A stretch of 64,000 nt of DNA from Clostridia bacterium (GCA_018433015.1 JAHDSB010000017.1:456-64455), one strand, 5' to 3'; positions 33,374-58,523 are shown, numbered from the stretch's first letter. Made by a program: numbers and translations. The notes: generated by a model from the sequence alone, not told the origin.

Positions 33374-33895
33374 TTATATAACCTGCTTATCCTTCTGTAT
33401 CATTGGACCTTTTAAGATTCCACTTTTTTCAAATAGATTTAATACCATATACCCAATTAAACTGCCCCCTAATGTACTTACTAAAAATGGTATTACGAAG
33501 AAAAATACAGCTACCTCTTTTCCGATTAAATATTTAGCTATGGGATAAGCAGCTATACCACCTAATAATCCTGTACCTACCACTTCCCCTAGAGCAGCCC
33601 AGGATTTTCTCTGAGTCATTTTAAAAACTATTCCTGCTAAAAGGGCACCAAACATACTGCCGGGAAAGGCCAGTAAAGAACCTGTGCCCAACATATTTCT
33701 CAGCAATGAAATAAGGAAGGCATTAGCTAGCCCATACATAGGGCCAAGCATAACTGCTGTTATTACATTAATAGCATGCTGTATAGGAAAACATTTTGCC
33801 ACACCTACCGGAATATACACCAGATGAGCCGACATTGTTCCCACAGCAATTAATAGTGCTGAGAGTGTGAGTTTTTTTACATTCATAACTTCCAT
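33374..33895 (-). CDS. thiW: ECF transporter S component for a thiazole/thiamine precursor, ThiW
   Basis: Six-TM protein with ThiW-like FPGSMFGALLAG. A TPP riboswitch lies directly upstream. Confidence 0.75.
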   Translation of the reverse strand: MEVMNVKKLTLSALLIAVGTMSAHLVYIPVGVAKCFPIQHAINVITAVMLGPMYGLANAFLISLLRNMLGTGSLLAFPGSMFGALLAGIVFKMTQRKSWAALGEVVGTGLLGGIAAYPIAKYLIGKEVAVFFFVIPFLVSTLGGSLIGYMVLNLFEKSGILKGPMIQKDKQVI

Positions 33896-33961: not shown

Positions 33962-34106
33962 AAAAAAACACGTACCCTGTCAGGAATACGCGTATTCTCT
34001 AAAATAAAAATAACTTTCATTTCCTACGCTGGTATTACCCAGATCAGGTTCAAGGGTTAAAAAGCTAAAGCGCTTTTCTCTCAGCCGGCCTACCGGCACC
34101 CCGAGT
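33962..34106 (-). promoter_or_regulatory. TPP (THI-box) riboswitch with a terminator expression platform
   Basis: The minus strand reads CUCGGGGUGCCGGUAGGCCGGCUGAGAGAAAAGCGCUUUAGCUUUUUAACCCUUGAACCUGAUCUGGGUAAUACCAGCGUAGGAAAUG. It contains the conserved CUGAGA and ACCUGAUCUGGNUAAUACCAGCG elements. It is followed by the ACGCGUA/UACGUGU hairpin and UUUUUUU. Confidence 0.9.
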
Positions 34107-34187
34107 TATCCAATATTTGATTTTCTATCTATATTGTACAGTTATTAACTCTAAAAAAACAAGTTTTTTAGCTACTTTTTTCAACCT

Positions 34188-35498
34188 CTAAAATCTGTTT
34201 AATCTATAGCCAAACATTTTATTGAGCAAGGCTTCCTCAACCTCATATACATCATGCTCATCCTTTACATCAATATCACCTTGCATCAACTGACTAAAAC
34301 CAATCATTCCTAAGCCCTTTTCAAAGCGCCTTTCTTCCACATACGTGTTCATAAAGTACCCAGGAACATCTTCAACTAGATAACGTACAGTCATAACTAA
34401 TTGATGATTCTTCATTTGGGTATAAAATGTTTTACCTTCATACTCCATCTTCACGATTTGCGCTTTCATCGTCTTTTTACTTCCCTCGAAATCTATGGTT
34501 TGTTCCCAACTATTACCTACTTTCAAGGGTAATTTAATAATAATAGGCTCACGGAGCTTTGAATTTACTTCCTTCTTTTTCTCTCTGGTATTCTTTAATA
34601 CCTTTTCAGTCACAGTACCCTCAACATAATCAAATAAATATTCTATTTGGAAATTGCCAGGAATACCTGAACCATCAAGAAATAGTCCATCAAATTCATA
34701 TATTTGTTGCTCCTCATTTTCACTCTTTTTTTGCAACTGACCAGCATGGGCATATTCTGCTAAACCATAATAATTTAGGCGCGTACCAAGGGGTGGCAAG
34801 AAAGATAATAAATCCACCTTTTCTTTGGGACCAGAGGCGTCAGCATATAGTTTGTAACCAATCACCATGGATTTTTCCTCATCACCCATCCACAATTTTT
34901 CAAAAGAAATAACACCCTGCTTTTCTTTTATTTGACGTTTTTCATAAAAGTTGCTGTTCTTATCTTGATACTGTACTGTATATACTTTGCCATCTTCTGC
35001 CTCTTTAATTTCACTTATGGTGCAAGCTAGTTGATATTCTTTACCTGCCTTATCGCGTACAGTTTGTTCCCATTTAGCGTCTTTTTCTAAAGGTAAGCGC
35101 AAAAGCTCTATTTCAGTAAAAGTATCCATCATCATTTCTGCCTTCGCTAATTTTTGCACTAGGATCTGGTCTTTAATAATATACTGCCCATCTATACTAA
35201 AATCCGCTTTTGCTTCACCATCTGATAAATCTTCTACTCCTCCTGTAAAGTGATAAATCTGTTCTTTTTCTTGCTTATCTATGGAATCAATCCGCATATT
35301 GTGCCCATAATCAGCAAAGCCGCTATAAACCCAGAAATACCCTATTTCTTTAGGCAGCACTGCCTCTAGGCCTTCTGTTTCCGTTACCTCTGTCTGACCT
35401 TGGGGCGCAGGCTTCTGACCTGTATTGCATCCTACCAAGACAATAATTCCTAAAAGCAAAATTCCTAGATAAACAGTAATTTGCTTTAATTTCATCAT
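34188..35498 (-). CDS. Lipoprotein of unknown function
   Basis: Track ORF 34188..35507. The ATG at 35498 follows GAGGTG. Lipobox LVGCNTG. Confidence 0.6.
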   Translation of the reverse strand: MMKLKQITVYLGILLLGIIVLVGCNTGQKPAPQGQTEVTETEGLEAVLPKEIGYFWVYSGFADYGHNMRIDSIDKQEKEQIYHFTGGVEDLSDGEAKADFSIDGQYIIKDQILVQKLAKAEMMMDTFTEIELLRLPLEKDAKWEQTVRDKAGKEYQLACTISEIKEAEDGKVYTVQYQDKNSNFYEKRQIKEKQGVISFEKLWMGDEEKSMVIGYKLYADASGPKEKVDLLSFLPPLGTRLNYYGLAEYAHAGQLQKKSENEEQQIYEFDGLFLDGSGIPGNFQIEYLFDYVEGTVTEKVLKNTREKKKEVNSKLREPIIIKLPLKVGNSWEQTIDFEGSKKTMKAQIVKMEYEGKTFYTQMKNHQLVMTVRYLVEDVPGYFMNTYVEERRFEKGLGMIGFSQLMQGDIDVKDEHDVYEVEEALLNKMFGYRLNRF

Positions 35499-35580
35499 TA
35501 TAAACACCTCATGAATTTATAGTTTGGCTATTGTTATTTATTCCCAACAAAGCCCTTGTTTTATCCCTTTTATCTCCTTC

Positions 35581-39354: not shown

Positions 39355-40632
39355 TTATTTAAGCAATTCCGGTAAAAACAATGAAAGTTTGGGGAAATTT
39401 GTTATTAAAATTACTGTTATTAATTCTACTATCAAGAAGGGAATTATTCTACGACTAATTTGTTCCACTTTTAAATTAGAGATACCACAGGCCACAAAGA
39501 GATTTACCGCCATAGGAGGTGTAATCATTCCTACAGAAGTATTTACAACCATAATGATACCTAAAAGAATGGGATCTATGCCTAGCTGTACAGCTAAAGG
39601 TAAAAGAATAGGTGCTACCAGCAAAATAATAGCTTGTGTTTCCAGGAATGTGCCCAAGAATAACAGGATTAAGTTTATCAACAAGGTTATTACAAACATA
39701 TTGGATGAAATATTCATGATAGTATTTGTAATCTTAGCGGGAATTTGGGCACTTGTAATAAGCCAGGAAAAAGACTGGGAAGTTGCTATAACAAAAAGAA
39801 CTACGGAAGTACTTACTGCCGCTTTAACAATAATAGGACCTAAATCACTAATCTTAATTTCTCTATAAATAAACACACTAACAATAAAAGAATATACTAC
39901 GGCTACGGCTGCTGCCTCGGTAGGTGTAAAAACACCGCCATAAATTCCACCCAGAATTATAATGGGCATAATTAATGCTAAAATAGCCTCTTTAAAAGAG
40001 GAAAAAAACTTTTTCGCCGTTGTCGGTTCGCCTTTGGGTAACTTTAATTTCTTAGCATAGTAATAAATTACACCAATTAAGCCTATAGCCATCATAATTC
40101 CTGGTACGAAACCGGCTATAAACAAGGTCCCAATAGATACACTGGCAACAACACCATAAGTTACCATAGGAATGCTGGGAGGAATAATAACACCTAAGGT
40201 ACCACCTGCAGCAGCTACTGCTGCAGAAAAGTCTTTGGGATACCCTGCTTTAATCATGGCAGGAATCATAATCCCTCCGATAGCTGCTACCGTTGCCGGG
40301 TTGGAACCTGATATGGCTCCAAAAAAAGCTGAAGCTACAACGGTTATAATAGCTAATCCTCCAGGTACTGTCCCCACACAAGCCTTAGCAAAAGAAATCA
40401 AGCGCCGTGATATTCCCCCGCTCTCCATTAATCCCCCTGCTAACATGAAAAAGGGAATAGCCATAAAGGGGAAGGAATCTACTGCTGTAAACATGCGCTG
40501 AGCTACAACCAGGGGAGGAGTAGGAATATCGCCGAATACCAAAGCTGTGATAGAAGCCAGCCCTAAAGCTACGCCGATGGGTATGTTAACCACAAGTAAA
40601 ACCACGAGAGTTCCAAATAACAATGCTGCCAT
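39355..40632 (-). CDS. dctM: TRAP transporter large permease
   Basis: 425-aa polytopic protein. Operon with the small permease and the DctP-type binding protein. Confidence 0.85.
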   Translation of the reverse strand: MAALLFGTLVVLLVVNIPIGVALGLASITALVFGDIPTPPLVVAQRMFTAVDSFPFMAIPFFMLAGGLMESGGISRRLISFAKACVGTVPGGLAIITVVASAFFGAISGSNPATVAAIGGIMIPAMIKAGYPKDFSAAVAAAGGTLGVIIPPSIPMVTYGVVASVSIGTLFIAGFVPGIMMAIGLIGVIYYYAKKLKLPKGEPTTAKKFFSSFKEAILALIMPIIILGGIYGGVFTPTEAAAVAVVYSFIVSVFIYREIKISDLGPIIVKAAVSTSVVLFVIATSQSFSWLITSAQIPAKITNTIMNISSNMFVITLLINLILLFLGTFLETQAIILLVAPILLPLAVQLGIDPILLGIIMVVNTSVGMITPPMAVNLFVACGISNLKVEQISRRIIPFLIVELITVILITNFPKLSLFLPELLK

Positions 40633-40647
40633 TTAAGTCATCACCCC

Positions 40648-41115
40648 TTATTCAGGCTGTTTCTTCTTAGATAAAAGTACACTCTGTATAACGCGAATAC
40701 TCATTAAAAAGGCTCCAAAAGGTACTGCCAGATAAGCAAGCCAAATAGGAATAAACAGGGCAGGAGATGTTTGTTTTATTGCTATTTGGTGCATAATGAT
40801 CTTGTAGGAAAAATATATAATTAGTACATTAAAGAGAATTATTACAGCCGCTCTAAACAAATTCATAAACTTTGCAAATTGTTTGGGCAACATATTTACT
40901 ACGACTTCCACTCCTAGATGGGCATTCCTTTTAATACCTAAGCTGGCCCCAATATAAGCTAACCACACCATAATATAGCGGGCAAGCTCTTCAGACCAAG
41001 GTATGGAACCAAGTTGAAAATAACGTACCATAGTCGCTACAAATACAATTATGGTCATGAGAGGGAAAAGAATAATTAACATATATTCTTCCAGATGGTC
41101 AAAAAATTTAGCCAC
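40648..41115 (-). CDS. dctQ: TRAP transporter small permease
   Basis: 155 aa with 4 TM helices, located between dctP and dctM. Confidence 0.8.
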   Translation of the reverse strand: MAKFFDHLEEYMLIILFPLMTIIVFVATMVRYFQLGSIPWSEELARYIMVWLAYIGASLGIKRNAHLGVEVVVNMLPKQFAKFMNLFRAAVIILFNVLIIYFSYKIIMHQIAIKQTSPALFIPIWLAYLAVPFGAFLMSIRVIQSVLLSKKKQPE

Positions 41116-41213
41116 ACTACATCACTCCTAGGGAGAAAGGAGACTTGCAGAAACACAAGTCTCCTTTTTTGTTTTTTATGCTATTTAACTTAAGAAAATT
41201 ATCTTGTGACACT

Positions 41214-42212
41214 TTATTGTAATAAAGCATTAATAACATCTTCACCAATTTCGCCTTTGAACTTATCGTAGACAGGTTTAGTAGCTTCCTGTAAGGCCTT
41301 CTTGTCAGGAGTAGTTATTTCCATGCCTTTTTCTTTTAGATTTTCCGATAATTCCTTCTCCAAGCTAATACAATATTCTCTTTCCCACTGACGCGCTTCT
41401 TGTTCCGCTTCATTCAAAACTTTTTGATCTTCTGGAGATAAACCTTCATAGAAAGACTTGCTGACTAAAAATGCTGCCGGGGAATAAAAATGACCTGTTA
41501 AAGCTAGATAAGGCTGAACTTCATAAAATTTACTAGTATCAATAATTACTAAAGGATTTTCCTGACCGTCAACTGTTTTTTGCTGTAAAGCAGTAAATAA
41601 TTCTCCAAAAGGCATTGGTACAGGTTGGGCACCTAATACTTTAAAGGTTTCTACGTGAACGGGATTTTCCATCAAACGAATTTTTAAACCTGATATATCC
41701 TCTGGTTTATTGATAGCACGTTTACTGTTTGTTAACATTCTAAAGCCATTCTCCCAAAAACCTAAACCAATAATCCCCTTATCATTCAGAGAATCCATCA
41801 TGGCTTTACCAACTTCACCATCCATAACTTCAAAGGCTTTCTCTCTATCTTGGATAATGAAAGGCAAATCAAAGACCATAAACTTTTTCGAGAAGTTGGC
41901 TAAAGGAGCTGTAGAAACTAGCGTTGCTTCTAAGGTTCCCATGGAGATACCTTCTATGGCATCACGCTCGCTACCTAACTGGGCACTATGAAATAACTCA
42001 ACTTTAATTCTTCCTTCTGTCTTTTCTTCCATTATTTCCTTAAATTTTTGTAATCCTTTGTTGTAATGGGAATCAGGAGCTAAAGTATGGGCTATTCTTA
42101 TAGTTACAGCTTTCTCTCCATCCTTTTCTGTGTCCTCGGCTGCTTGTTGTCCACAACCGACCAAAGATACGACTAACACTAAAATTAACAACAAACTAAA
42201 AAACTTTTTCAT
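41214..42212 (-). CDS. dctP: TRAP transporter substrate-binding lipoprotein (DctP family)
   Basis: Track ORF 41214..42227. The ATG at 42212 (MKKFFSLL...) follows GGGAGG. Lipobox LVGCGQ. DctP-like body. Confidence 0.85.
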   Translation of the reverse strand: MKKFFSLLLILVLVVSLVGCGQQAAEDTEKDGEKAVTIRIAHTLAPDSHYNKGLQKFKEIMEEKTEGRIKVELFHSAQLGSERDAIEGISMGTLEATLVSTAPLANFSKKFMVFDLPFIIQDREKAFEVMDGEVGKAMMDSLNDKGIIGLGFWENGFRMLTNSKRAINKPEDISGLKIRLMENPVHVETFKVLGAQPVPMPFGELFTALQQKTVDGQENPLVIIDTSKFYEVQPYLALTGHFYSPAAFLVSKSFYEGLSPEDQKVLNEAEQEARQWEREYCISLEKELSENLKEKGMEITTPDKKALQEATKPVYDKFKGEIGEDVINALLQ

Positions 42213-42298
42213 AAATCTACCTCCCACAATTTTCTCTAATATAAAGATAATTTAAAAGGCCTCCTATTAACCTACCTCCTTTCCAAACCACTAATCTT

Positions 42299-43570
42299 CT
42301 AAGCTATAACTGGTAATGTGTCAGGAGCATGGGTCAAAACTGCTATTTTAGCCTGTTTCCCCATGACAGTTAAAGCACTTTCTACAGCTTGTTCAACAGT
42401 ATCAAAGGGTGTAAAACCTAATTTTTCTGCATCTTCAGGGGATATTCCTTCCGAAACTATATACACTTGTTCCCGCTGTCGCACCTGAGCCCACGCTAAG
42501 GCTAGAGCTGCTGCTACAGAATCTTTGATCATCCCTTTTTCATACATATCTTTAATCTCTGCAAAGTGTAACCCTGCGTAATCAACCATTTCCTGATGGG
42601 TCATGGCTACACCCTCGGGACAAGGGGTAACAACAATGATAATACCATTTTCCTTTACAATTCTATCGGCAGCATACAGAGTTTTGTGAGCCTGCCAGAA
42701 CTCTAAATCACAAGGATGAGAACCAGCCAATACTATTTCCACTTCCTGGGGAACTTTCGCCGTATAAACAGCTTTACTTACTTCCACTCCCTTTTTGAAA
42801 GCTACTTCTAAGTCCCCAAAAAAGGCTTGTATTACCTTGCCATTTCTATCCAAAACAGTATTAAAGATTACATCCATCCCGATTTTCCTGGCAATATGAT
42901 TTAATTCCCTGCGCACAGGATTATCTTCTCTTCCTAAATATGATCTCTTTTCCCTTACACTTAATAAATGTGTACTTCCCGTAGTTATCTCACCTGAAAT
43001 GCCGGGCTGGACTATCTTAGCTCCTCCAGAAAATCCCGGGATATGATGAGGTACAATGCTGCCAATTCCCAGCTTAAAATCAGCTTCATAAACTAACTTA
43101 TTTAAAGATATAGGGGTACCATTTTCCGTCTTCCCTAAGTCTACCAATTCTTCCGTATTCCAACAGTCATGATTGATAATCTCTAGCCGGTCAACTATTT
43201 CCTTGCCAAACTTTTCTATTATCTCTTCTTCTGTCATAAAACGATGGGTTCCCAAGGCTATGACAATCTTTATTTGTTCATCTTTTATACCTGCAGTATT
43301 TAACTCCCGTAAAATAACAGGAATAATTTTATCAGTGGGGGTGGGACGAGTGTTATCATCGGCTACTAATACCACATTTTTCTTTCCCTCTACTAATTTT
43401 CCCAAAGGCAGCGACTCCATGGGATTTGCCAAAGCTCGTTCTACTTCCATACTAATATCTGCTACAGGCGCTAGATCAGCCGGGGAATATACCCCCAATA
43501 AATTCTCCTCCGGAAGGTTAATATTTAAAACAGAATTCCCAAAGGGAAGACTAATAGTTTTAAGAACCAT
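42299..43570 (-). CDS. LarA-like nickel-pincer-dependent 2-hydroxyacid racemase/epimerase homolog (DUF2088)
   Basis: Motifs DDNTRPTP, ALGTHR, VPHHIPGFSGGAK and GSTH. By eye these match the LarA catalytic His, tethering Lys and Ni-ligand His positions. Confidence 0.75.
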   Translation of the reverse strand: MVLKTISLPFGNSVLNINLPEENLLGVYSPADLAPVADISMEVERALANPMESLPLGKLVEGKKNVVLVADDNTRPTPTDKIIPVILRELNTAGIKDEQIKIVIALGTHRFMTEEEIIEKFGKEIVDRLEIINHDCWNTEELVDLGKTENGTPISLNKLVYEADFKLGIGSIVPHHIPGFSGGAKIVQPGISGEITTGSTHLLSVREKRSYLGREDNPVRRELNHIARKIGMDVIFNTVLDRNGKVIQAFFGDLEVAFKKGVEVSKAVYTAKVPQEVEIVLAGSHPCDLEFWQAHKTLYAADRIVKENGIIIVVTPCPEGVAMTHQEMVDYAGLHFAEIKDMYEKGMIKDSVAAALALAWAQVRQREQVYIVSEGISPEDAEKLGFTPFDTVEQAVESALTVMGKQAKIAVLTHAPDTLPVIA

Positions 43571-43593
43571 TTGAATTCCTCCTCACTAATCAT

Positions 43594-44601
43594 TTAACAA
43601 TAATATTTCTTGTAGGCCATGTCAGCGGCCATTCTAAATGCTGCTTCCATACTAGCTGCTGAAGCTCTTCCTTCTCCTGCTCTACCAAAAGCCGTTCCAT
43701 GATCCACTGAAGTTCTGATTATTGGTAAACCTAAGGTAACATTCACACCTTCATCAAAATTGACTATTTTGATGGGAATATGTCCTTGATCATGGTACAT
43801 TACAACCATTACTTGGTATTGTCCTTTAATGGCCCGCACAAAAAGACTATCGGGAGGCACGGGTCCCATAACTTCTTTACCTTCTGCTCGTGCTTCCTCT
43901 ATAGCAGGTATAATTTCTTCAATTTCTTCCATGCCAAAGGCTCCACCTTCCCCACAGTGGGGATTTAAACCAGCCACTGCTATGGTTTTATTAGGTACTT
44001 GATAAGTCTTAATCATATCATGAGCTAAATTAATTACTGTCTTAACACGCTCTTTAGTAGCACGCTCACAGGCCTCTCTCAAAGAACAGTGGGTACTGAC
44101 GTGAATAACATGATAACCATCGGCAGCCAGCATCATAGCATAATCCTGGGTATTGGTCTTTTCCGCAAATATCTCTGTATGCCCTGCATATTGAGTATAT
44201 CCTGCCCGGTGCATAGCTTCCTTATGAATAGGTCCCGTTACCACTGCATCAATTTCACGTTTGTTGGCTAATTCAATAGCTTTAAAAATATAGGAGATAG
44301 CTGCTTTCCCTGCTACAGCATTTACTTTTCCGTAGGGCACCTCAGAAGCTCCTGGAATATCTACATGCAATACATCAATAATCCCTGGAGTAAACTTAGC
44401 TTCTTGTACATTTTTTATAACATTTAGCGCTAAGGGGATTGAAACAAACTTAAAACTCTCTTCTATCCGCTGGCTGTCACCTACTACCAGGGGCCTGGCC
44501 ATCTCATAATATTTCTGTTGACTTAAAGTTTTAACAGTAATCTCCGCGCCACAGCCCGCAGGATCACCCATAGTAATTGCTAAGATCGGTTTCTTGTTCA
44601 T
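43594..44601 (-). CDS. PdxA-family 4-hydroxy(phospho)acid dehydrogenase (PdxA2-type)
   Basis: N-terminal ITMGDPAGCG, HDQGHIP and VDHGTAF motifs. Adjacent to the DUF1537 kinase gene. Confidence 0.85.
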   Translation of the reverse strand: MNKKPILAITMGDPAGCGAEITVKTLSQQKYYEMARPLVVGDSQRIEESFKFVSIPLALNVIKNVQEAKFTPGIIDVLHVDIPGASEVPYGKVNAVAGKAAISYIFKAIELANKREIDAVVTGPIHKEAMHRAGYTQYAGHTEIFAEKTNTQDYAMMLAADGYHVIHVSTHCSLREACERATKERVKTVINLAHDMIKTYQVPNKTIAVAGLNPHCGEGGAFGMEEIEEIIPAIEEARAEGKEVMGPVPPDSLFVRAIKGQYQVMVVMYHDQGHIPIKIVNFDEGVNVTLGLPIIRTSVDHGTAFGRAGEGRASAASMEAAFRMAADMAYKKYYC

Positions 44602-44603
44602 TT

Positions 44604-45884
44604 TTAATCCCTTCCCTTATAATTTTTTTTAATATGCTGTATGGCTCTGGCAAAAACTTGTTCTGTACCAAAACCCCCTGCTTTTGTAATAATATTCATA
44701 TTATCATAAGGGCCTCCTACGATTTTGCCGTAAGGAACCCCGGTTTCCACTTCTTCTATTATTTCAATACCAACGCTTTCCAGACCCCTTAAGACATGAA
44801 GAGCCGTAGTTCCACCTGTGACTATTAACCCCGATAAAGTACACTCTTTTACAATATTTCTAACCAGTTTTTGCAGTTTTTGTGCAATGATGTAGGCTCC
44901 TTCTCCTCCTTTTATCCCTTTAACTTGGCAAAATTTGTTTACTTCTTTTCTGTCTTTCCCTGTACGGCAGGTAGTTATTATTAAATTATGTCCTTCATCT
45001 AAGACCTTAACAATCTTCCGTATTGACTCTTTGTCTACATCTTTTTCTAAAAGAGACACGGGATTTAAAAATACTTCCTTGGCTATATTGTTTGCCACAA
45101 GATAATCTACTATAGCCCTATTTTGGGGATTAACACTGCCTACGATTAGTAAAACAGGTGGTATATTAGCCTGGTCCTGCTGACCCGTCATTTTGATCAA
45201 GGCCTGAGACAGGCCAGCTGAACCACAAAAGAAGAGGGGAGGTAAAATCTTTTTATTTATGGAAACAATTGTTTCCAAATCTTCTTCCACAACTGCATCC
45301 ACCAAAATAATGGACTTACCCTTGAGAGCTAACTTTTTTAGATAATCTGTCAAAATTTTAGCTCCTTGAGCTACAATATCATGGGTAACTAGTTCAATAG
45401 GGAGATTGGTCTGCTCTCTTAATATATGAGGTAAATATGAATTCTTTATGGGAAAGCAAGGATCTTTTGCTATAGCCGTTTCATTTAGAGGAATATTGTC
45501 TATATATAAATGACCCTCTTTTATAATTCGTCCCATTTCAGGATAAGCGGAACAAACAATCATATTCTGTAAAGAATATTCCTCCATTATAGTCTCAATC
45601 TCTACCCCTATATTACCTCGCCAAGTAGAATCAATTTTTTTATATATTTCTGTATTACCTAGTATTTTTAAATAACTACACACTTTTCTGATTATATTTC
45701 GTGCATCTTGTTGTGGTATTTCTCGGGAATTAGTAGAAATAGATACAGCATCAAATCGGTTTAAATCATATTTCATCCCTTCCGGATAGTTTAAAACAAT
45801 ACTCTTATATCCAAAATTGCTTAAAGTCACAGCAGTATCACTTGATCCGCTTAAATCATCAGCAATTATTGCATAACGTATCAA
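44604..45884 (-). CDS. Four-carbon acid-sugar kinase family protein (DUF1537; DtnK/DenK/OtnK family)
   Basis: N-terminal IIADDLSGS motif and a two-domain size of 426 aa. TTG start follows GGGAGGG. First gene after the sigma-54 promoter. Confidence 0.8.
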   Translation of the reverse strand: MIRYAIIADDLSGSSDTAVTLSNFGYKSIVLNYPEGMKYDLNRFDAVSISTNSREIPQQDARNIIRKVCSYLKILGNTEIYKKIDSTWRGNIGVEIETIMEEYSLQNMIVCSAYPEMGRIIKEGHLYIDNIPLNETAIAKDPCFPIKNSYLPHILREQTNLPIELVTHDIVAQGAKILTDYLKKLALKGKSIILVDAVVEEDLETIVSINKKILPPLFFCGSAGLSQALIKMTGQQDQANIPPVLLIVGSVNPQNRAIVDYLVANNIAKEVFLNPVSLLEKDVDKESIRKIVKVLDEGHNLIITTCRTGKDRKEVNKFCQVKGIKGGEGAYIIAQKLQKLVRNIVKECTLSGLIVTGGTTALHVLRGLESVGIEIIEEVETGVPYGKIVGGPYDNMNIITKAGGFGTEQVFARAIQHIKKNYKGRD

Positions 45885-45951
45885 ATTGTACCCTCCCTTA
45901 AAAACAATGAACTATTACTTAATATTTCACTTATCACTTTAACTATATATG

Positions 45952-45967
45952 TGCAAATATCATGCCA
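45952..45967 (-). promoter_or_regulatory. Sigma-54 (-24/-12) promoter of the kinase-pdxA2-larA-TRAP operon
   Basis: The minus strand reads TGGCAT-GATAT-TTGCA, matching TGGCAC-N5-TTGCW. It lies 68 nt upstream of the start codon, and a sigma-54 activator is encoded immediately upstream. Confidence 0.8.
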
Positions 45968-45970
45968 ACA

Positions 45971-45996
45971 GAAAAAACCCCAGGAAAGGGGGTTTT
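45971..45996 (-). terminator. Terminator of the activator gene, located between the UAS and the sigma-54 promoter
   Basis: The minus strand reads AAAACCCC-CTTTCCT-GGGGTTTT extended by TT (a run of six T in all). Confidence 0.65.
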
Positions 45997-46005
45997 AATA
46001 AGGCA

Positions 46006-46050
46006 TAGTGTTGCATACGCAACACTATGCAACGTTGCATATGCAACACT
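46006..46050. promoter_or_regulatory. Upstream activator sequence: three overlapping dyads built from TGCAAC/GTTGCA half-sites
   Basis: The + strand reads TAGTGTTGCATACGCAACACTATGCAACGTTGCATATGCAACACT. It contains TGCAACGTTGCA (perfect 12-bp palindrome), GTTGCATATGCAAC (perfect 14-bp palindrome) and TAGTGTTGCAT/ACGCAACACTA (one mismatch). Confidence 0.65.
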
Positions 46051-46077
46051 CTTATAACATGTTATTAAATATATTGG

Positions 46078-47931
46078 TTATTGTTTATATTTTTTTAACC
46101 TTCTCCACAGGGTAGAGCGATTAATCCCTAAGATTTCCGATAGTTTAGTTTGATTTCCCTCATATTCATCTAAAAGCTTTATTAGATCTTCATCACTTAG
46201 TTCCCTATAATTATATTTTTCAATAGTACTACTGCCTTGCGGCTGAACCTTCTTAAAAGAAGCAAGTATAGTTTTGACATTTTCAGCCTTAATAATAGAA
46301 CCTTCGTGCAACACAACTAATTGTTCCATGAAGTTATATAGCTCTCTGACGTTACCGGGCCAATGATAATCCCCCAAGGGCTCTAAGGTATCGGCTTCAA
46401 GTTTTAGCAAGGGATTTAAGCGGTGTAAGAACTTCTCTGCCAAAACAATTACATCATGCCCTCTTTCCCACAAGGTGGGGAGATATAGGGACAGTACATT
46501 TACGCGATAATATAAATCTTCACGAAATTTGCCAGCTTTAACTGCCTCCCATAAATCGTTATTTGCAGCAGCTATGATACGTATATCAACTGGAATTACA
46601 CAGTCATCGCCCAAACGTATTACTTCCTTTTCCTGCAGAACCCTCAATACCTTAGCTTGTACCGCTAAGCTCATATCTCCTATTTCATCTAGGAAAATAG
46701 TTCCCCGGTGAGCTAACTCAAAGAGGCCCGCTTTTCCACCTTTACGTGCATCAGTAAAGCTCCCTTCGCGATAACCAAAGAGTTCACTTTCCAGCAGTGA
46801 TTCAGGTAAAGAGGCACAGTTAACTGCCACAAAAGGACCATCGGCTCGTAGGCTGGCATTGTGTATACTTTGGGCAAACATTTCCTTTCCGGTACCAGTG
46901 GCCCCTGTAATAAGTACTGTGGCATTAGATTTACTTATTTTATGGGCTTTATAAATTACCGACTTAATTTTGTTACTGTTGCCCACGATATCAGTAAAAG
47001 TATGCTTGGCCACATGCCCTTTAGCATATAATCTTTTTCTCATTCTCGTTTCAAGATCTTGAATCTGTTTTAGCGGTTTAAGAGTAACTATAATCCCCGC
47101 TTCCTCCTGCTCACTATCGATGATTTTTTGCGTATCAATTAAGAATTGTTGCCCTTTCCATTTAATAAGTTCTTCCTTTTCTTGAAAATCCGGTAAAAGG
47201 TCCTCTAGTTTTTTTCCCACTAAAAGGTGATGATCGGAATAACCTAAATATTCACGAACTTTAGGATTGGAATGGGTTATATAATAATTATCATCTGTGG
47301 CTAAGATTCCTTCATCAGTAACTGCATCCAAAATAGCTTCCAACCTATTTTTAGCCAGGAGCTCTTTTCTTCTTACATAAACTAGTTCTTCCGCTTTTAC
47401 TAGAGCTTCATAAATAGTACGCTTCCCAGAAGAGATTAATATCCCTTGTATTCCTAATTTGAGAGCCTTTTCTACAGAAATTGTATCGCCTACAATGATA
47501 CGTAAACCTTTTTTGATTCTACCCGAAAGATCTTTTTCTAATTTAACAGGATTTTCTACCGGTACTTCTACCACTTGTAAATTCATGTATTTACCTACTG
47601 AAGTAGCATCATATATGGTATTGGGATAACCAACTACCCCCACAGTATTAGCTATAAAAGAAGCTTTGTACAAGGCTTCCAATAAGTCGTAAGCAGAAAC
47701 ATCAATAGGTATCAGCGGGATATTTTCCACTTCTTTTTGAATGGCTAAAAAAGTTCCCCCACGACTAATTATAGCTTCTATATCTGCCTTTTCTGCAATC
47801 CTGGCCTGCTTCACACCTTGTTGTAAATTACCTACAACAACTCGACAGTTAAAACCATTTTCTTTAACGACAATATTCGCAACATTAGCAATATTTATGT
47901 TGGGAGCTATTAACAATAGATTGGGTCTCAT
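46078..47931 (-). CDS. Sigma-54-dependent transcriptional activator (PrpR-N sensory domain, PAS, AAA+, Fis-type HTH)
   Basis: Walker A GATGTGKE, GAFTGA-like GSFTDA and ESELFGY. C-terminal HTH LSEILGINRSTLWRRLKK. The N-terminal ~190 aa are PrpR-N-like. Confidence 0.9.
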   Translation of the reverse strand: MRPNLLLIAPNINIANVANIVVKENGFNCRVVVGNLQQGVKQARIAEKADIEAIISRGGTFLAIQKEVENIPLIPIDVSAYDLLEALYKASFIANTVGVVGYPNTIYDATSVGKYMNLQVVEVPVENPVKLEKDLSGRIKKGLRIIVGDTISVEKALKLGIQGILISSGKRTIYEALVKAEELVYVRRKELLAKNRLEAILDAVTDEGILATDDNYYITHSNPKVREYLGYSDHHLLVGKKLEDLLPDFQEKEELIKWKGQQFLIDTQKIIDSEQEEAGIIVTLKPLKQIQDLETRMRKRLYAKGHVAKHTFTDIVGNSNKIKSVIYKAHKISKSNATVLITGATGTGKEMFAQSIHNASLRADGPFVAVNCASLPESLLESELFGYREGSFTDARKGGKAGLFELAHRGTIFLDEIGDMSLAVQAKVLRVLQEKEVIRLGDDCVIPVDIRIIAAANNDLWEAVKAGKFREDLYYRVNVLSLYLPTLWERGHDVIVLAEKFLHRLNPLLKLEADTLEPLGDYHWPGNVRELYNFMEQLVVLHEGSIIKAENVKTILASFKKVQPQGSSTIEKYNYRELSDEDLIKLLDEYEGNQTKLSEILGINRSTLWRRLKKYKQ

Positions 47932-48054: not shown

Positions 48055-50148
48055 CTACACTATATATAACAGTTCTGAATAAGTGGGAAAAGGCCATAAT
48101 TTCGCCTCTACCAAAGATTCCAGCCGATCAGCTACTGACCGCAGACAATCCATGGCCGGGAATATTTTATCACGATAATACACGGCATGTTCATAAGTAT
48201 CCCCTTGCAAGTCATGACCATTTCCTACTAACTCATCTAACTCCTCTATCTTTTCTTGCAAAGCTTGAATATTAGCAGCAAGCTCCAGTACTACTCTTTC
48301 CTGACCACTTGTCATGGCTTGAGGAACTGCAGCCTTAATGTTGTTAATAGCTTCAGACATAATACTTACATATTTACAGGCAGCAGGTAAAATCTGACGT
48401 TTAGCCATATCCAACATGGTCATGGCCTCTATATTTAACTGCTTACAGTAACGTTCCAACATTATTTCATAGCGGGAGTAAAGTTCCTCCTGGCTTAATA
48501 CTTTGTGTTTATTAAAAATCTCCCTGGACTTTCCTGTAATCAAGGCTGGAATAGCTTCTACTGTTGAAGATATATTAGGTAAGCCCCTCCGCTGGGCTTC
48601 TTCTACCCAATCCTGGGAATAATTATTACCATTAAAGATAATTCTCTTATGATTTATTACTATTTCTTTAAGAAGTTGCGGTAAGGCCGTATTGAAATCT
48701 TCTGCCTCTTCCAATCTATCAGCAATCTGAGCTAAGGCTTCTGCCACAATGGTATTTAAGACGGTATTAGGCCCGGCTACAGAAATGGAGGAAGGAACCA
48801 TTCTAAATTCAAATTTATTACCTGTAAAGGCAAAGGGTGATGTCCTATTCCTGTCGGTCGAATCTTTAGCTAAGGTAGGTAATGTACTAACCCCTATCGT
48901 CATCTTCCCCCCCTGTTTGGAACGTTTTAAGCCTCCATTTTGCATTTGCTCCAGAATATCAGTTAATTGATCTCCTAAAAATACAGAAATAATAGCAGGG
49001 GGAGCTTCATTAGCACCTAAACGATGGTCATTTCCAGGATTAGCACAGGCTAATCTAAGCAAATCAGCATGTTCATCAACAGCTTTAATTACAGCACATA
49101 AAAAGGTTAAGAACTGGGCGTTTTCATGGGGTGTTTTTCCGGGTTCTAAGAGATTCTGCCCATCATTAGTTGACATAGACCAGTTATTATGTTTTCCTGA
49201 ACCATTTACTCCGGCAAAAGGTTTCTCATGAAGGAGACAAACAAGATCATGTCTTAAAGCAACTTTTTTTAGAGTATCCATTACCAGCTGATTTTGATCA
49301 ACGGCTATATTAGTAGTAGTGAAGACGGGAGCAAGTTCAAACTGCCCAGGGGCCACTTCATTATGTTGAGTTTTGGCGGGAATCCCCATCTTCCATAGTT
49401 CCTCATTAACTTCCCTCATGAAAGCAGCTATTCTTTCTTTAATGCTGCCAAAATAGTGATCCTCCAATTCCTGTCCTTTAGGTGGCATGGCTCCAAACAG
49501 CGTTCTTCCGGCTAATATTAAATCCTTACGTTTCTCATAATGATCCTTATCTACCAAGAAATATTCCTGTTCCGCTCCCACAGTAGTTATAACCCGGGTA
49601 GTTGTTGTATCGCCAAACAGCCGTAATATTCTTAATGCTTCCTTAGATATGGCATCCATGGAGCGCAGTAGGGGTGTTTTTTTATCTAGGGCTTCTCCTG
49701 TATAAGCGCAAAAAGCAGTAGGAATGCAGAGAGTTATTCCTCCCGCATCTTCTCTGAGAAATGCAGGGGAGGTACAATCCCAAGCCGTATATCCTCTAGC
49801 CTCAAAGGTAGCACGTAAACCACCGTTAGGGAAAGAAGAAGCATCAGGTTCCCCTTTAATTAATTCTTTTCCGGAAAACTCCATCATTACTTTCCCATCG
49901 CTACAAGGAGCTATAAAGGAGTCATGCTTTTCGGCAGTAAAACCAGTCATAGGTTGGAACCAATGGGTAAAATGAGTGGCACCTCTCTCTACCGCCCATT
50001 CCTTCATAGCATTAGCCACCACATCAGCACACTTAGGATCTAAAGGATAACCTTCCTTAATTGTTTTTATAAGCATCTGATAAACACTTTTAGGAAGTCT
50101 CTCTTTCATAACCGTTTCACTAAATACATTAGCAGCAAATCTTTCCAT
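48055..50148 (-). CDS. glnN: Glutamine synthetase type III
   Basis: 697 aa. The GSIII-type N-terminus ([21 protein letters not shown]) and the size are typical of GlnN rather than GlnA. Confidence 0.85.
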
Positions 50149-54261: not shown

Positions 54262-56367
54262 ATGCTAAAGAATTTCAAGATTAAAACAAAAATAATGGTT
54301 ATGATAGGGCTTGTGGTTTTGCTGGCCTTTATAATTACTAATACCATTGTAGCAACTAAGTCAACAAATATGGCCCAGGAATCTGCTTTCAGCATAGCCC
54401 AAGCCACAGCTGATGAATACGGCAATAAAGTAAAAGCAGAGATGGAAATTGCTATGGACAGTGCCAGAACCGTAGCTCAAACATTTAAAGGTTTAAAAAA
54501 AGTAAATATAACGGATAGAGAAGCTCTAAACGAGATTTTAAAGACTGTCTTACAAGAAAATCCCGCTTTTCTTTCTGTTTGGACCTGCTGGGAACCTAAT
54601 GCCTTAGATGGTAAAGATCTCGAGTTTATTAATAAACCGGGTCATGATGAAACAGGACGCTTTGTATCTCTGTGGAACAATGATGGGGGAAGTATCCATG
54701 TGGAACCTCTGGTGGATTATGATACTCCCGGTACCGGTGATTATTATTTAAATGCTAAAAATACAACACGCGAAGTGATTGCCAACCCCTACTTATATCC
54801 TGTCAATGGGAAAGATCAGCTAATTACAAGCTTAGTTACTCCCATTATTTATGATGGAAAATTTGTGGGAGCAGTAGGAATAGATATTTCTTTAGATACT
54901 TTTCAGGAAATGATTACACAGATAAAACCTTTTGACACCGGATACGCTGCCCTTATTGACAATACCGGGAGCTATGTGGCCCATATTGATACTGGTCATA
55001 TCGGTCAAAACATAGGCAATACCGAGGAAAGAACCACTGCCAAAAAAGCTATAGTTCAGGGTAAAGGCTATGAAACTATACTCACCTCTAATTTGACAAA
55101 TGAAGAAGTTTTAAGAATCTTTACACCTATCGTTGTAGGAAATTCTACAACACCCTGGTCCCTTGCTATTAGTGCACCTATGGATAAAGTGTTAGCAGAT
55201 GCCCATGCTATGAGAAATTATTCTTTAGGAGTAGCAGGCATTTCTATTATTATTATCTTATTAGTAATCTTTTTAGCAGCAAGCAGTATTACTAAACCCA
55301 TTCTTCAAACTACTGCAGTATTAAAAGATATTGCGGAAGGAGAGGGTGATTTAACTAAAAGACTAGAGGTTAAAACAAAAGATGAGCTGGGAGAATTGGC
55401 CCAGTATTTTAATAGATTTATCGGGGATATTCAAAGTATTGTAGGGGAAGTATTAGATAATACTCAGGAACTTAGTGCTTCTAGTGAGGAACTTTCCGCT
55501 ACAGTAGAAGAGATCTCCGCCCAATCTCAAAATGTTAGCTCCAACACTCAAGAGATCGCTGCCGGTATGGAAGAAACCAGCGCTACTACTGAAGAAGTTA
55601 CAGCTTCTGCAGAAAATGTACATAACGCTGCAGTAAGATTAGCCCAGAAGGCTGAAGAAGGAAATCGTTTAATACAAGAAATCAGGCTTAAAGCCGAAAA
55701 GATTAAAACAGATGCCACAGAATCCAGTAAGGTTGTTCACGAATTATATAATGAAAAACAGGCGGGTGTAATAAAAGCTATAGAAGAAGGACAAGTTGTG
55801 GCAGAAATACAAAATATGGCTCAGGTAATCTCCGATATTGCGGAACAAACTAATCTTTTAGCTTTAAATGCTGCTATAGAAGCCGCCAGAGCCGGAGAAC
55901 AAGGAAGAGGTTTTGCCGTTGTAGCGGAAGAAGTTCGTAAGTTAGCAGAGCAATCAGCAGAGACAGTGACCAGTATTCAAGGTGTAATAAAACAAGTCCA
56001 AGCTGCCTTCCATAACTTATCTGAAAATGCTAATGGTGTGTTAGATTTTATTGATAATAAAGTTATTGGAGACTACGAAGCCTTAGTTGAAATAGGAGTA
56101 CAATATCAAAAAGATGCAGATTATGTAGGTAAAATGGTAGAAGAATTTGCTTCTAACGCCCAACAAATTAATCAATCTACTGAAGAGGCCGACAAAGCTA
56201 TGGAAGAAATCGCTCAGGCTATAGAACAAGCCAATACAGGTACTCAAGAGATCTCTAATACCATAACGGAAACTACAAACGCCATTGAAGAAGTAGCAAA
56301 TGTAACTCAGAAACAGGCTACCTTAGCAGAAAAATTAAACATGTTAGTTCATAAATTTAAAATTTAA
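54262..56367 (+). CDS. Methyl-accepting chemotaxis protein (Cache-type sensor, HAMP, MA domain)
   Basis: Two TM helices flank a ~280-aa extracellular domain. Highly conserved signalling hairpin [34 protein letters not shown]. Confidence 0.9.
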
Positions 56368-56505
56368 ATAAAAAACTTTAACCTAACTTCCCTCAAATAA
56401 GAAAGAGCCCCGTTGTTAGGCGGGGTATCATAGGGACAAAAAGTGAACCGGGTATAAATCCCTGTGATGGGGCGGACAGTTTCGGCTGTCCGCCCTTTTC
56501 TGTGT

Positions 56506-57611
56506 TTACGCGGCGGGGCCCGTACTGGCTGATGTGGCGTCGCTGGCGGCGGCAGGGGTATCGTCCATTAAGATGGCATCCCCCTCGTCCAACTCGTCCT
56601 CCTGCGCTTTTTCTGGCTCCACCGGTGTGTCCATCAGGCCGATGTCCCGGTTGTCCTGCTAGGCGGTGCGGGAATACTTCTGCGACTTTTCGCCCACCAC
56701 AATTTTCTCAATGAACAGCCGCAGGATTTCCGGCGTGAGCTCCATAATGTCGCTGCAGCGCTTGGCCTTGTCAATAAACTGCGCGCCACGTTACTCAGTG
56801 AGTTTCGGAGCTGTTCCAGCCGTTGCTCCTACTTTGGAAGCTTTTCCCGTAATTCCGCCTGTTCTGTAGTATACTCCGAGGAGAGCAATCGGAAGTGTTC
56901 GTTGGGAATTCGTCCCAGCACATTGTCCTCATAGAGCCGCTTGAACAGGGTTGTAGGCTCGCCGTCTCGTCGCTTCAGGGTGTGTCAATCTCACGCTGGA
57001 TGCGGGCGATCTCCTGCCGGGTTTCGGCGGTGTTCTTGCGAGTGATATGCTCGACAAACAGCTTTTCCTTCTGCCGGGCATAATGGGTAATCCGCTTTAA
57101 GTCATCCAGCACAATGGTTTTGAGCTGGATTTCCCGGATGTAGTGGACGGTGCACTCCTCTTTCCCGCGCTTTTTGTAGGTAGAGCACATGAAGTTGTTC
57201 TACGTTTCTTTCATGGTATGCGCCCTGTGGAGCACCAGCGTGCCGCCGCAGTCGGCGAAATACACTATTCCAGAAAAAAATTGGGCGTATAAATTTGCTT
57301 GGGTGGGCGCTTTTTGTGCTTACGGATGTCCTGCACGATGTCCCACAGCAAGTCGTTGTCGCCGTACAGGCTATCCACGTTGTTGTTGATGGCGATAAAG
57401 CGGACACCGTAGCTGGGGAAAATCATCTCCGTATACTGCCCCACCAGTAGATAATCCCTGCCGAGCCATGACATATCCTTGACGACGAGAGTTGCGACCT
57501 GATCGCTTTCCACCAGCTATCGGACAGCGTTTCCACAACCTCTCTCATGGTCATGCCCGCCCGGACAATGTAGGATTTGATTTCGTTCCTGTAAGTATCG
57601 CTTTTTCTCAT
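56506..57611 (-). pseudogene. Large serine recombinase, disrupted by frameshifts, internal stops and deletions
   Basis: Minus-strand fragments in three frames:
- ESDQVATLVVKDMSWLGRDYLLVGQYTEMIFPSYGVRFIAINNNVDS (resolvase-domain end);
- FMCSTYKKRGKEECTVHYIREIQLKTIVLDDLKRI (zinc-ribbon region);
- LFKRLYEDNVLGRIPNEHFRLLSSEYT and ELTPEILRLFIEKIVVGEKS (C-terminal coiled-coil region).
At least three in-frame stop codons are present. No catalytic-Ser N-terminal motif is recognisable. Confidence 0.8.
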
Positions 57612-57792
57612 GTTGCCTCCATATTTTTTGTTTGCTCCGCCCAAATAGCGAACAAGATGAAAATAGGCAAAAAATACGCTGTATCCGGTTTTTCGCGCCG
57701 AGTACAGCGTATTTCGTTTGTGGCACAATCCCACCTAGCAAATGCCTGCTTTTTGGGATTACTGTCTTACGGACATCCGCTCATCTTTAGCC

Positions 57793-58248
57793 TCATCGCA
57801 CTCTCGCCAGCATCTCCTCGCCGGAGATTTTACCCTCCACATAATCCCGACGGGCCTGACTGGCGGTGGCGGACCAGGATTTAAACTGTTCCTCGGTCAA
57901 GTCCCTACCGCTGTGTTCCTCGGCATATTTCCCCACAGCCCGGTACCTGCGGGAATAGACCTTGTTGTACTCGGTGAGATATTGCAATAAAAACGTGTCG
58001 GCTTCAATACCTTTTTCAAAGAACAGCTTTGCCCCCACCTGCTTGCAGGTCCGCTTGCCCCTGTATGGTCTGTTGCAGAAATCCCGCTTACGTTTATCGG
58101 TCAGCACGAAATACCGTCCGCAGAGCTTACAATGCTTTACGTACTGTCCGTTTTTCAGCATCTCGGTAAATTCAAAGAACAGCATCTCATCCAGATACTC
58201 AATCAGGTAATAGGGCATCAGGCTCACGCCCTCGCCGTCCTGATGCAT
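57793..58248 (-). pseudogene. C-terminal portion of a Cys-rich accessory protein typical of serine-recombinase elements (probably N-terminally truncated)
   Basis: Track ORF with CKLCGRYFVLTDKRKRDFCNRPYRGKRTCKQVG. I believe this matches DUF6076, but the name is from memory. An in-frame TAG lies 24 codons upstream of the first Met and no RBS is present. The terminator AATACGCTGTA/TACAGCGTATT (57673-57713) follows. Confidence 0.45.
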
Positions 58249-58443
58249 GATCTCCAGTACGGCTGGAGCAGCAGCGTCCCCAACCTGTCCGGCAAGCTGA
58301 AACGCGTCTCCCTACGCTACGGGCGAGGCGGTGGAGCTGGCCAAGGTGCTCGGATACGAAATTATTTGGCAGAAACGAAATAGGTATAATAATTAAAAAT
58401 GTACGATGCAGTGTATTGCTTCAATACTTCTATTCTATTATTA

Positions 58444-58472: not shown

Positions 58473-58523
58473 ATCAATACACGATATCGATACTCGATAT
58501 TTAAGGCGCGGACGGAGGTTACA

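Follow-up and report, generated by a model that had tools for sequence, protein, structure and literature searches.

What does a bacterium consume with an operon that encodes a DUF1537 kinase, a PdxA-family dehydrogenase, a LarA-type racemase or epimerase, and a tripartite ATP-independent periplasmic (TRAP) transporter? Such an operon lies at positions 39355 to 47931 of a 64,000-nucleotide stretch of DNA from a Clostridia bacterium (GCA_018433015.1 JAHDSB010000017.1:456-64455), which we will call the window. D-threonate and D-erythronate can be broken down by a DUF1537 kinase (DtnK or DenK) together with PdxA2, as Zhang et al. reportedly showed in PNAS in 2016. An earlier note, which was made from the sequence alone, suggested that the LarA homolog might interconvert the two acids. 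We find that this is very probably an operon for the catabolism of an acid sugar, with a LarA-type C2 epimerase. With moderate confidence, we propose something more specific: that the operon is inducible, that it serves to break down a four-carbon acid sugar (most probably D-erythronate, D-threonate, or both), and that its C2 epimerase depends on the nickel-pincer nucleotide (NPN).

The genes of the operon

Seven genes lie in tandem on the minus strand. From upstream to downstream, the genes and signals are:

46078 to 47931, minus strand: sigma-54 enhancer-binding activator, with the domains PrpR_N, PAS, Sigma54_activat (5.6e-68), AAA_lid_14, and HTH_8, a Fis-type helix-turn-helix (Pfam and NCBIfam)
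46008 to 46049, minus strand: two adjacent palindromes, GTGTTGCATATGCAAC and GTGTTGCGTATGCAACAC, probable activator sites (direct reading of the sequence)
45974 to 45996, minus strand: terminator-like hairpin of the activator gene, AAAACCCC...GGGGTTTT plus a run of T (terminator scan and sequence)
45952 to 45967, minus strand: sigma-54 promoter of the -24/-12 type, TGGCATGATATTTGCA (exact pattern match)
44604 to 45884, minus strand: DUF1537 four-carbon acid-sugar kinase (PF07005, 2.5e-59; PF17042, 2.9e-25)
43594 to 44601, minus strand: PdxA2-type oxidative decarboxylase, dependent on nicotinamide adenine dinucleotide (NAD) (PF04166, 1e-102)
42299 to 43570, minus strand: LarA homolog, predicted to be of the NPN type (PF09861, 5.9e-64; PF21113, 1.2e-11)
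41214 to 42227, minus strand, with a probable start at 42212: DctP, the solute-binding lipoprotein of the TRAP transporter (PF03480; TIGR00787 above cut-off)
41133 to 41170, no strand assigned: strong 15-bp hairpin that contains GC pairs, within the 98 nt that separate dctP from dctQ (terminator scan)
40648 to 41115, minus strand: DctQ, the small membrane subunit of the TRAP transporter (PF04290)
39355 to 40632, minus strand: DctM, the large membrane subunit of the TRAP transporter (PF06808; TIGR00786 above cut-off)

The family matches of all of the operon's proteins far exceed Pfam's cut-offs. The gaps between successive genes from the kinase to dctM are 2, 23, 86, 98, and 15 nt. The open reading frames (ORFs) and family calls agree with the gene order and the coordinates in the earlier note (kinase, PdxA, LarA, dctP, dctQ, and dctM), and its family assignments stood up as well: profile searches matched PF09861, PF07005 and PF17042, and PF04166. 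The genes on either side of the operon are unrelated: a type III glutamine synthetase with its own terminator is upstream, and a pseudouridine synthase of the RluA family is downstream.

Is the LarA homolog an active enzyme?

The LarA homolog contains both Lar_N (PF09861) and LarA_C (PF21113), and its AlphaFold2 model (pLDDT of 89.4) has the LarA fold, with TM scores of 0.89-0.90 to 9EIA and 9EID and 0.89 to 5HUQ; these LarA structures are from Isosphaera and Lactiplantibacillus. The motifs IALGTHRF, VPHHIPGFSGGAK, GSTHLL, and EFWQAHK are all present, and they are invariant in 23 orthologs whose overall identity is only about 60%. We mapped residues to LarA's numbering by using Dataset S2 of Desguin 2020 (PMC7583248). 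The catalytic pair of histidines (H108 and H174 in LarA) corresponds to H109 in LGTHR and H175 in VPHH; the lysine that tethers the cofactor (Lys184) is K185 in GGAK; the nickel ligand His200 is H201 in STH; and the residues that bind the carboxylate (Q295 and K298) are Q293 and K296 in EFWQAHK, which are invariant. D72 and R75 (in DDNTRP) are also present and invariant. The residues for the cofactor and for catalysis had been picked out by eye (ALGTHR, PHH, GGAK, and STH), with the caveat that a proper alignment might show the lysine or the histidines to be missing. They are present, and they do not vary across the 23 orthologs. We predict that this protein is a C2 epimerase for a 2-hydroxy acid.

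Which 2-hydroxy acid would it act on? To our knowledge, functions have been assigned to only about half of the LarA superfamily. The homolog does not reach the cut-off of any of NCBIfam's curated equivalogs for specificity (LAR, MAR, LarAH10, LarAH14-16, or hexonate): its best score is 352 bits for MAR-LarAH6 (cut-off 500), followed by LAR (304 of 460) and LarAH10 (302 of 540). The positions that determine specificity (F175, F176, W358, and T359 in LarA1) are H, I, V, and A in this protein, and the pocket has further changes (Y294 to W and V297 to H). The known signatures are F, F, W, E/Q for lactate; E, V, A, H for gluconate; Y, F, H/Q, T for 2-hydroxyglutarate; and H/Q, K for malate (Desguin 2020, PMC7583248). 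The residues of our protein at these positions are small and polar and fit none of the four signatures.

The motifs IVPHHIPG and EFWQAHK are shared with Moth_0729 of Moorella thermoacetica (55% identity, without gaps). Moth_0729 was assigned to Group 23 of the LarA homologs, with "unknown function" and with no linked COG listed for the group (Desguin 2020, PMC7583248). The shared motifs and gapless alignment place our protein in the Moth_0729-like part of this group. We found nothing in the literature about Moth_0727-0730. We also considered whether this clade had already been assayed as LarAH66 from Sporomusa termitida, and rejected this idea: the primers for LarAH66 encode MAETVFEF...TVPVLK, while the Sporomusa orthologs of our protein have MSAIKVKLPYG...APDMLPIV. 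(According to the 2024 JBC study, LarAH66 was only poorly active, and the search for its true substrate was unsuccessful.) In the same study, C2 epimerization of 4-deoxy-threonate or 4-deoxy-erythronate was a side activity only, of other LarA homologs.

The kinase, the dehydrogenase, and the transporter

The rest of the operon also gives hints about the substrate. The kinase has the SBD_N (PF07005) and NBD_C (PF17042) domains and the N-terminal ADDLSG motif of the DUF1537 kinases. DtnK and DenK are the activities of this family that have been characterized. Among NCBIfam's models, which do not include one for DenK, the best match is DtnK at 286 bits, or 114 bits above OtnK (172 bits). Its nearest relatives with solved structures are 4XFM and 4XFR, and its relatives are annotated in public databases as "D-threonate/D-erythronate kinase." The same preference is seen in other genomes: the kinases that are linked to orthologs of the LarA homolog scored highest against D-threonate kinase in 11 of the 11 cases that we tested (189-350 bits, with a cut-off of 450), which was 91-162 bits above their scores for 3-oxo-tetronate kinase.

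The PdxA protein scores 293 bits against PdxA2 from Salmonella (2HI1) and 276 bits against D-threonate-4-phosphate dehydrogenase (6E85), but only 193 bits against PdxA1, the biosynthetic enzyme, and it keeps the motifs GHTE, NPHCGE, and MYHDQGH. From this similarity, we predict that it converts a 4-phospho-tetronate to dihydroxyacetone phosphate (DHAP) and CO2.

DctP, DctQ, and DctM are encoded together, as a complete TRAP transporter. DctP is likely to start at the ATG at 42212, which gives it a lipoprotein signal with an LVGC lipobox, consistent with a monoderm host. Its top match among solved structures is 7BBR (264 bits), a protein that binds sugar acids, followed by 4P47, 4NQ8, 4PDD, 4P9K/4PAK, and 4PDH (229-246 bits). 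We take 4PDD, 4PDH, and 4P9K to be complexes with D-erythronate and 4PAK and 4NQ8 to be complexes with pantoate. DctP shares the motifs DSHY, ER, and NF with the binders of erythronate or pantoate and not with 7BBR or 4P47; it agrees with 7BBR in the segment TSKFYEVQ. The neighborhood of these binders among TRAP proteins has been published as "bound to pantoate or erythronate," and "pantoate/D-erythronate" is listed as a class of TRAP ligands in published work. Pantoate is a possible ligand of DctP. We rejected pantoate as the substrate of the pathway, which the pantoate-binding relatives and the neighboring ilvD and panB genes in other genomes might suggest, because the chemistry of PdxA requires a 3-hydroxyl group, which pantoate lacks. 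As for the hairpin between dctP and dctQ, it may affect the stability or attenuation of the mRNA so as to favor the transcript for the binding protein, which would set the ratio of DctP to the membrane subunits.

Conservation of the gene cluster

We next asked whether the genes stay together in other genomes. We scanned one genome per species by using an alignment of the orthologs, which gave 312 relatives, and we examined 80 loci. For counting conserved neighbors (within 8 kb of the LarA ortholog), we used the 54 of these loci that had at least 4 kb of sequence on both sides. The kinase or PdxA was nearby in 38 of the 54 loci, and both were in 29 of them; a TRAP system was present in 22 and the activator in 17. 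The linkage is found in five phyla (Bacillota, Syntrophales/Deltaproteobacteria, Acidobacteriota, Spirochaetes, and Chloroflexota). The full order, (activator)-kin-pdxA-larA-dctPQM, is found in about 20 species of Bacillota (Peptococcaceae-like metagenome-assembled genomes and Negativicutes) and Spirochaetes, and in one metagenome-assembled genome that is labeled as Solibacteraceae. In Sporomusa and Pelosinus, kin-pdxA-larA is retained and is accompanied by an RpiR regulator and a GntP permease.

We also made a reciprocal survey that began with the kinase. The nearest orthologs of the kinase (51-52% identity), at L089:5650-15986 and L090:4896-15098, keep the PrpR_N activator and the TRAP transporter, as well as PdxA in L089. 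Neither locus encodes LarA. Instead, they encode a zinc-dependent alcohol dehydrogenase that is similar to L-threonine-3-dehydrogenase and a beta-hydroxyacid dehydrogenase that is similar to tartronate-semialdehyde reductase or L-threonate dehydrogenase; these two NAD-dependent dehydrogenases may replace the epimerase step. A third locus encodes a very distant protein of the LarA superfamily and an IlvD/Edd dehydratase, and a fourth has kin-pdxA only. Since LarA is swapped for dehydrogenases near relatives of the kinase, LarA seems to be an exchangeable entry module on a conserved core of kinase and PdxA2.

LarA orthologs are also found near dehydratases. Members of the IlvD family (16 loci) and the PanB family (15 loci) accompany the ortholog in about 15-22 of the 80 loci, many of which have no kinase close by. 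The orthologs from loci that have dehydratases, PanB, and TRAP but no kinase belong to the same clade (52-63% identity). In three Negativicutes (L072, L081, and L083), the ortholog is found with a split enzyme of the UxaA/altronate dehydratase type (388 and about 105 amino acids). These three loci lack kin-pdxA; the activator and a sigma-54 promoter lie ahead of LarA (at 9947-11272, 5890-7296, and 9983-11230, respectively). Because these LarA proteins are beside dehydratases for 2,3-dihydroxy acids and without a kinase, the clade appears to act on the free acid and not on a phosphate ester.

Paralogs of ilvD and panB lie beside LarA genes of this clade in L007, L009, L013, L014, L018, L020, L027, and L036, and also in L039, L040, L044, L045, L054, L055, L057, and L059. 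These paralogs pass NCBIfam's cut-offs for ilvD and panB, and L027 and L036 have a tandem duplicate of panB. In L007 and L009, formate-tetrahydrofolate ligase, the folate transporter FolT, and an aminotransferase are in one string of genes with kin-pdxA-larA.

A second paralog of LarA, from the LarAH10 family, is found at L027:6538-7827, L036:9862-11151, L039:16060-17364 (minus strand), and L078:3103-4629 (605-677 bits, with a cut-off of 540). It adjoins the LarA of our clade or is a few kb away, so these clusters for sugar acids have two enzymes of the nickel-pincer type. Five further loci have a second LarA-like ORF of similar identity.

Control by sigma-54

Is the operon expressed from a sigma-54 promoter? 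The 193 nt between the genes for the activator and the kinase contain, in this order, the two palindromes, the terminator hairpin of the activator gene, TGGCATGATATTTGCA, a ribosome-binding site (AAGGGAGGG), and the TTG start codon of the kinase, which is about 70 nt downstream of TGGCATGATATTTGCA. This is the sole exact match to TGGCA-N6-TTGCW in the 64-kb window, and we would expect about 0.17 exact matches given its base composition. If one mismatch is allowed, there are 7 matches, as compared to 8.7 by chance. This is not above chance, so the case for the promoter rests on its exactness, its position, and its conservation. As to conservation, 17 of the 17 related loci with an orthologous activator ahead of the cluster have a GGCA-N7/8-TGCA element before their first catabolic gene. 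Together with the AAA+ enhancer-binding protein, a promoter with GG at -24 and GC at -12 makes this a sigma-54 operon, and the unique exact match and the 17 conserved elements bear out the earlier identification of a sigma-54 promoter and a PrpR-N/PAS/AAA+ activator ahead of it.

The palindromes GTGTTGCATATGCAAC and GTGTTGCGTATGCAACAC (46049-46008) are upstream of the promoter and are probably the binding sites of the activator (upstream activating sequences). Some of the related loci have similar palindromes, of the form TGTTG(C)...(G)CAACA, at a distance of 90-220 nt upstream of their promoter. The activator's own terminator hairpin (45974-45996) sits between these sites and the sigma-54 promoter that they would control.

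The loop of the activator that contacts sigma-54 (residues ~386-400) is GSFTDA and not the canonical GAFTGA. The three closest orthologs of the activator (from L059, L011, and L012) also have GSFTDA, while 16 more distant ones have GAFTGA; both groups of loci retain sigma-54 promoters. The window does not contain rpoN, but the same contig encodes another sigma-54 activator about 9 kb beyond the window's upstream edge.

The proposed pathway

C2 is the only center at which D-erythronate (2R,3R) differs from D-threonate (2S,3R), and PdxA-type enzymes act on the C3 configuration that the two acids have in common. A C2 epimerase is thus what would merge the two substrates. The interconversion of D-erythronate and D-threonate by the LarA homolog is plausible and is the best-supported reading, given what the kinase, the dehydrogenase, and the binding protein resemble and given the dehydratases near LarA orthologs.

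In this pathway, the PrpR_N/PAS activator would sense the substrate or an intermediate, bind the paired palindromes, and open the sigma-54 promoter. The transporter, which clearly belongs to the DctPQM family, would import the acid. With the nickel-pincer nucleotide, the LarA homolog would remove a hydride from C2 and return it to the opposite face, and so would interconvert the C2 epimers of the free acid. The kinase would phosphorylate the 4-hydroxyl of whichever epimer it accepts. By analogy with the pathway of DtnK and PdxA2, the PdxA2-type enzyme would oxidize C3 and decarboxylate the product to give DHAP, CO2, and NADH. The epimerase would be a redox-neutral front end, so that one pair of kinase and PdxA2 could consume both epimers.

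A bolder idea is that the Moth_0729-like clade epimerizes four-carbon sugar acids, which would be a first for a nickel-pincer enzyme and would give anaerobes a redox-neutral route with just one enzyme in place of a dehydrogenase and an isomerase. In the sister loci, the epimerase would supply a new, non-phosphorylative route, with dehydration of the tetronate by the IlvD paralog to 4-hydroxy-2-oxobutanoate, which the PanB paralog, acting in reverse, would split to pyruvate and methylene-tetrahydrofolate. The adjacent genes for formate-tetrahydrofolate ligase and FolT fit the IlvD/PanB route. We consider this extended proposal to be speculative and rather unlikely to be correct as a whole.

Alternative explanations

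Several observations weigh against a pathway for tetronates. The kinase falls short of the cut-off of the DtnK equivalog (NF047819; 286 vs. 450 bits), and the PdxA protein falls short of the cut-off for D-threonate-4-phosphate dehydrogenase (NF002891; 322 vs. 583 bits). Several of the erythronate or pantoate ligands in that cluster of TRAP proteins were co-purified. The best match of DctP, 7BBR, is a sugar-acid binder that was crystallized with 2-keto-3-deoxygluconate (KDG) and that handles C5 and C6 sugar acids as well as KDG. The Group 23 enzyme that has been assayed, LarAH23 from Isosphaera, was inactive on seven substrates (Desguin 2020, PMC7583248). This result is uninformative for tetronates. 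Group 23 is heterogeneous, and LarAH23 belongs to a different subclade than our protein. Finally, some neighbors of LarA orthologs fit longer or deoxy sugar acids, and genes for making the cofactor were not found nearby; we discuss these along with the alternatives that they bear on.

First, an operon with the same architecture might act on another substrate, such as a pentonate, a hexonate, or a deoxy-aldonate. LarA would still epimerize C2, and the kinase would then add a phosphate to the terminal hydroxyl, so that oxidative decarboxylation by the PdxA-like enzyme would yield a ketose phosphate. The match of DctP to 7BBR fits this explanation. So do the neighbors of LarA orthologs in other genomes: LarAH10-family enzymes, whose native substrate appears to be D-gluconate/D-mannonate; UxaA-type and IlvD/Edd dehydratases; DmpG/DmpF-like and DapA-like aldolases; and GntP permeases. 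Also, 3-oxo-tetronate kinases are reported to accept C5 and C6 acids. However, D-threonate kinase is the best match of every linked kinase, the dehydrogenase most resembles PdxA2, and DctP has motifs in common with the erythronate and pantoate binders. The PanB paralogs, formate-tetrahydrofolate ligase, and FolT in the sister loci point to the release of a one-carbon unit from a four-carbon skeleton. On balance, another substrate seems unlikely, although it is the alternative that survives best.

Second, the LarA homolog might act after the kinase, by interconverting 4-phospho-D-erythronate and 4-phospho-D-threonate, and so feed PdxA2 or clear inhibitory 4-phosphoerythronate. In our operon, larA does follow kin and pdxA, with little space between the genes; there are extra basic or polar residues near the pocket (H176, H295, and K349, with Arg at the position of T353 in Moth_0729); and 4-phosphoerythronate is a natural metabolite, from the biosynthesis of pyridoxal phosphate. 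But orthologs from the same clade are found with dehydratases, PanB, and TRAP in loci that lack the kinase, and the LarA enzymes that have been characterized all act on 2-hydroxy acids that are not phosphorylated. We consider a phosphorylated substrate to be improbable.

Third, the LarA homolog might be non-functional, or might lack its cofactor, if the genome lacks larB, larC, and larE. None of the genes in the window is larB, larC, or larE, and the 10-kb extensions at either end of the window do not contain larB or larE. Nor is larB or larE within 10 kb of the LarA ortholog in 80 other genomes. A search with tblastn, using LarE from L. plantarum (the same as the full length of PDB 5UDQ, 601 bits) and PurE from E. 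coli as queries, found no match in the window or in any of 85 loci. We considered three ORFs in the window as candidates and rejected all of them: a PP-loop protein (17990-18844) resembles TtcA (163 bits) and was not matched by LarE in tblastn, and two ORFs that might be LarB or LarC by size have no family match (25646-26392) or are a transporter of the major facilitator superfamily (26892-28091). Against this explanation, LarA homologs are frequently not linked to larBCE, and the residues for the cofactor and for catalysis are invariant across the 23 orthologs, which indicates purifying selection. Also, Moorella thermoacetica has both the 55%-identical ortholog and a LarC that has been characterized (PMC13510736). 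Together with the invariant cofactor-binding residues, this is indirect support for a supply of the cofactor, and we think it very improbable that the LarA homolog is inactive.

Last, it is even harder to believe that the kinase and PdxA serve vitamin B6 metabolism (salvage or detoxification of 4-hydroxy-L-threonine, with LarA unrelated or replacing a missing step): DUF1537 kinases do phosphorylate 4-hydroxy-L-threonine and PdxA2 is capable of the PdxA reaction, the PdxA protein passes the broad TIGR00557 model, and an L-threonine-3-dehydrogenase-like gene follows the nearest orthologs of the kinase, but the TRAP importer, the dedicated sigma-54 activator, and the linkage to LarA, dehydratases, and acid-sugar permeases indicate catabolism, pdxJ is not in the window, and LarA's chemistry requires a 2-hydroxy acid and not a 2-amino acid.

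Other features of the window

The type III glutamine synthetase that adjoins the operon (48055-50148, minus strand) is in the same place in the closest relative (L059). In four spirochaete genomes (L046, L058, L063, and L067), it is convergent to dctM, so the adjacency recurs across phyla.

A public contig (GCA_022838045.1 JALHGZ010000002.1, or L001) encodes an identical LarA protein and differs from the window elsewhere. On that contig, the glutamine synthetase is split (54 and 623 amino acids) and the activator has 581 instead of 617 amino acids. These are likely to be assembly errors, so the window probably represents a different and better assembly. By coordinate arithmetic, the public contig stops at about position 53122 of the window.

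Farther from the operon, a region at ~56000-61300 has a higher GC content than elsewhere in the window (0.45-0.49 vs. ~0.37) and includes a DUF6076 gene, a PadR regulator, and two genes for DUF2812 membrane proteins. This island was probably acquired horizontally. GCA_018434615.1 and a Logan assembly carry the same block. A thiamine pyrophosphate riboswitch (34004-34113, minus strand; 67.5 bits, which is above the gathering score) is upstream of thiW (33374-33895), which encodes a transporter for a thiamine precursor. Four ORFs have no match in Pfam: 3747-5777 (plus strand, 676 amino acids), 34188-35507 (minus strand, 439 amino acids), 19320-19988 (minus strand, 222 amino acids), and 25646-26392 (minus strand, 248 amino acids). 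The first three also have no match in NCBIfam.

Comparison with known systems

We found no paper that links LarA (DUF2088) to DUF1537 or PdxA2, in keeping with the earlier impression that this combination of enzymes had not been characterized. Its parts do resemble known systems. As in the DtnK/DenK-PdxA2 pathway for four-carbon acid sugars, a DUF1537 kinase and a PdxA2-type decarboxylase are found together with a TRAP transporter, and the predicted products are the same (DHAP and CO2). The differences are the additional larA gene, the control by sigma-54 and a PrpR_N activator, proteins that score below the cut-offs, and hosts from lineages of strict anaerobes.

The epimerase has a precedent in GntE1 and GntE2, which are sugar-acid 2-epimerases from the LarA superfamily that interconvert D-gluconate and D-mannonate (Desguin 2020, PMC7583248). 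The logic is the same as we propose: the C2 of an aldonic acid is inverted, with the help of NPN, ahead of a pathway with a kinase or dehydratase. However, our LarA homolog is only ~22% identical to the structure from T. maritima (4NAR), it has H, I, V, A instead of E, V, A, H at the specificity positions, and its substrate is likely to have four carbons instead of six. The identity to Moth_0729 of Group 23 is 55%. Malate racemase (Mar2/LarAH6) has the same fold and is the best match in NCBIfam (352 bits) and among solved structures (6D6Z, 213 bits). We rejected this function: the score is below the cut-off of 500, and the H/Q-K pair for the second carboxylate of malate is missing, with V/A or A/L instead, depending on the alignment.

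A second stereoisomer of tetronate can also be brought to DHAP and CO2 with a DUF1537 kinase by the 2-oxo-tetronate route for D-erythronate or L-threonate, which consists of DenD or LtnD, OtnI, OtnK, and OtnC. That route uses an NAD-dependent oxidation, an isomerase, and a decarboxylase of the class II aldolase type, where we propose a single redox-neutral epimerase. D-erythronate and D-threonate arise from the oxidation of sugars and of ascorbate. If our proposal is correct, it would explain how strict anaerobes use both compounds without the NAD-dependent 2-oxo route, and the DUF1537/PdxA2 pathway would gain a step that uses a nickel cofactor. A tetronate epimerase would also be useful as a biocatalyst for chiral four-carbon building blocks. 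For this clade of Group 23, our operon and about 40 syntenic relatives suggest tetronate 2-epimerase as a concrete candidate function that would be cheap to test.

Overall, the core of a TRAP transporter, a DUF1537 kinase, and PdxA2 was already known, as was the C2 epimerization of an aldonic acid by a LarA-family enzyme (GntE). What is new is the conserved insertion of a LarA clade into a tetronate-type pathway, a functional prediction for part of Group 23, and control by sigma-54.

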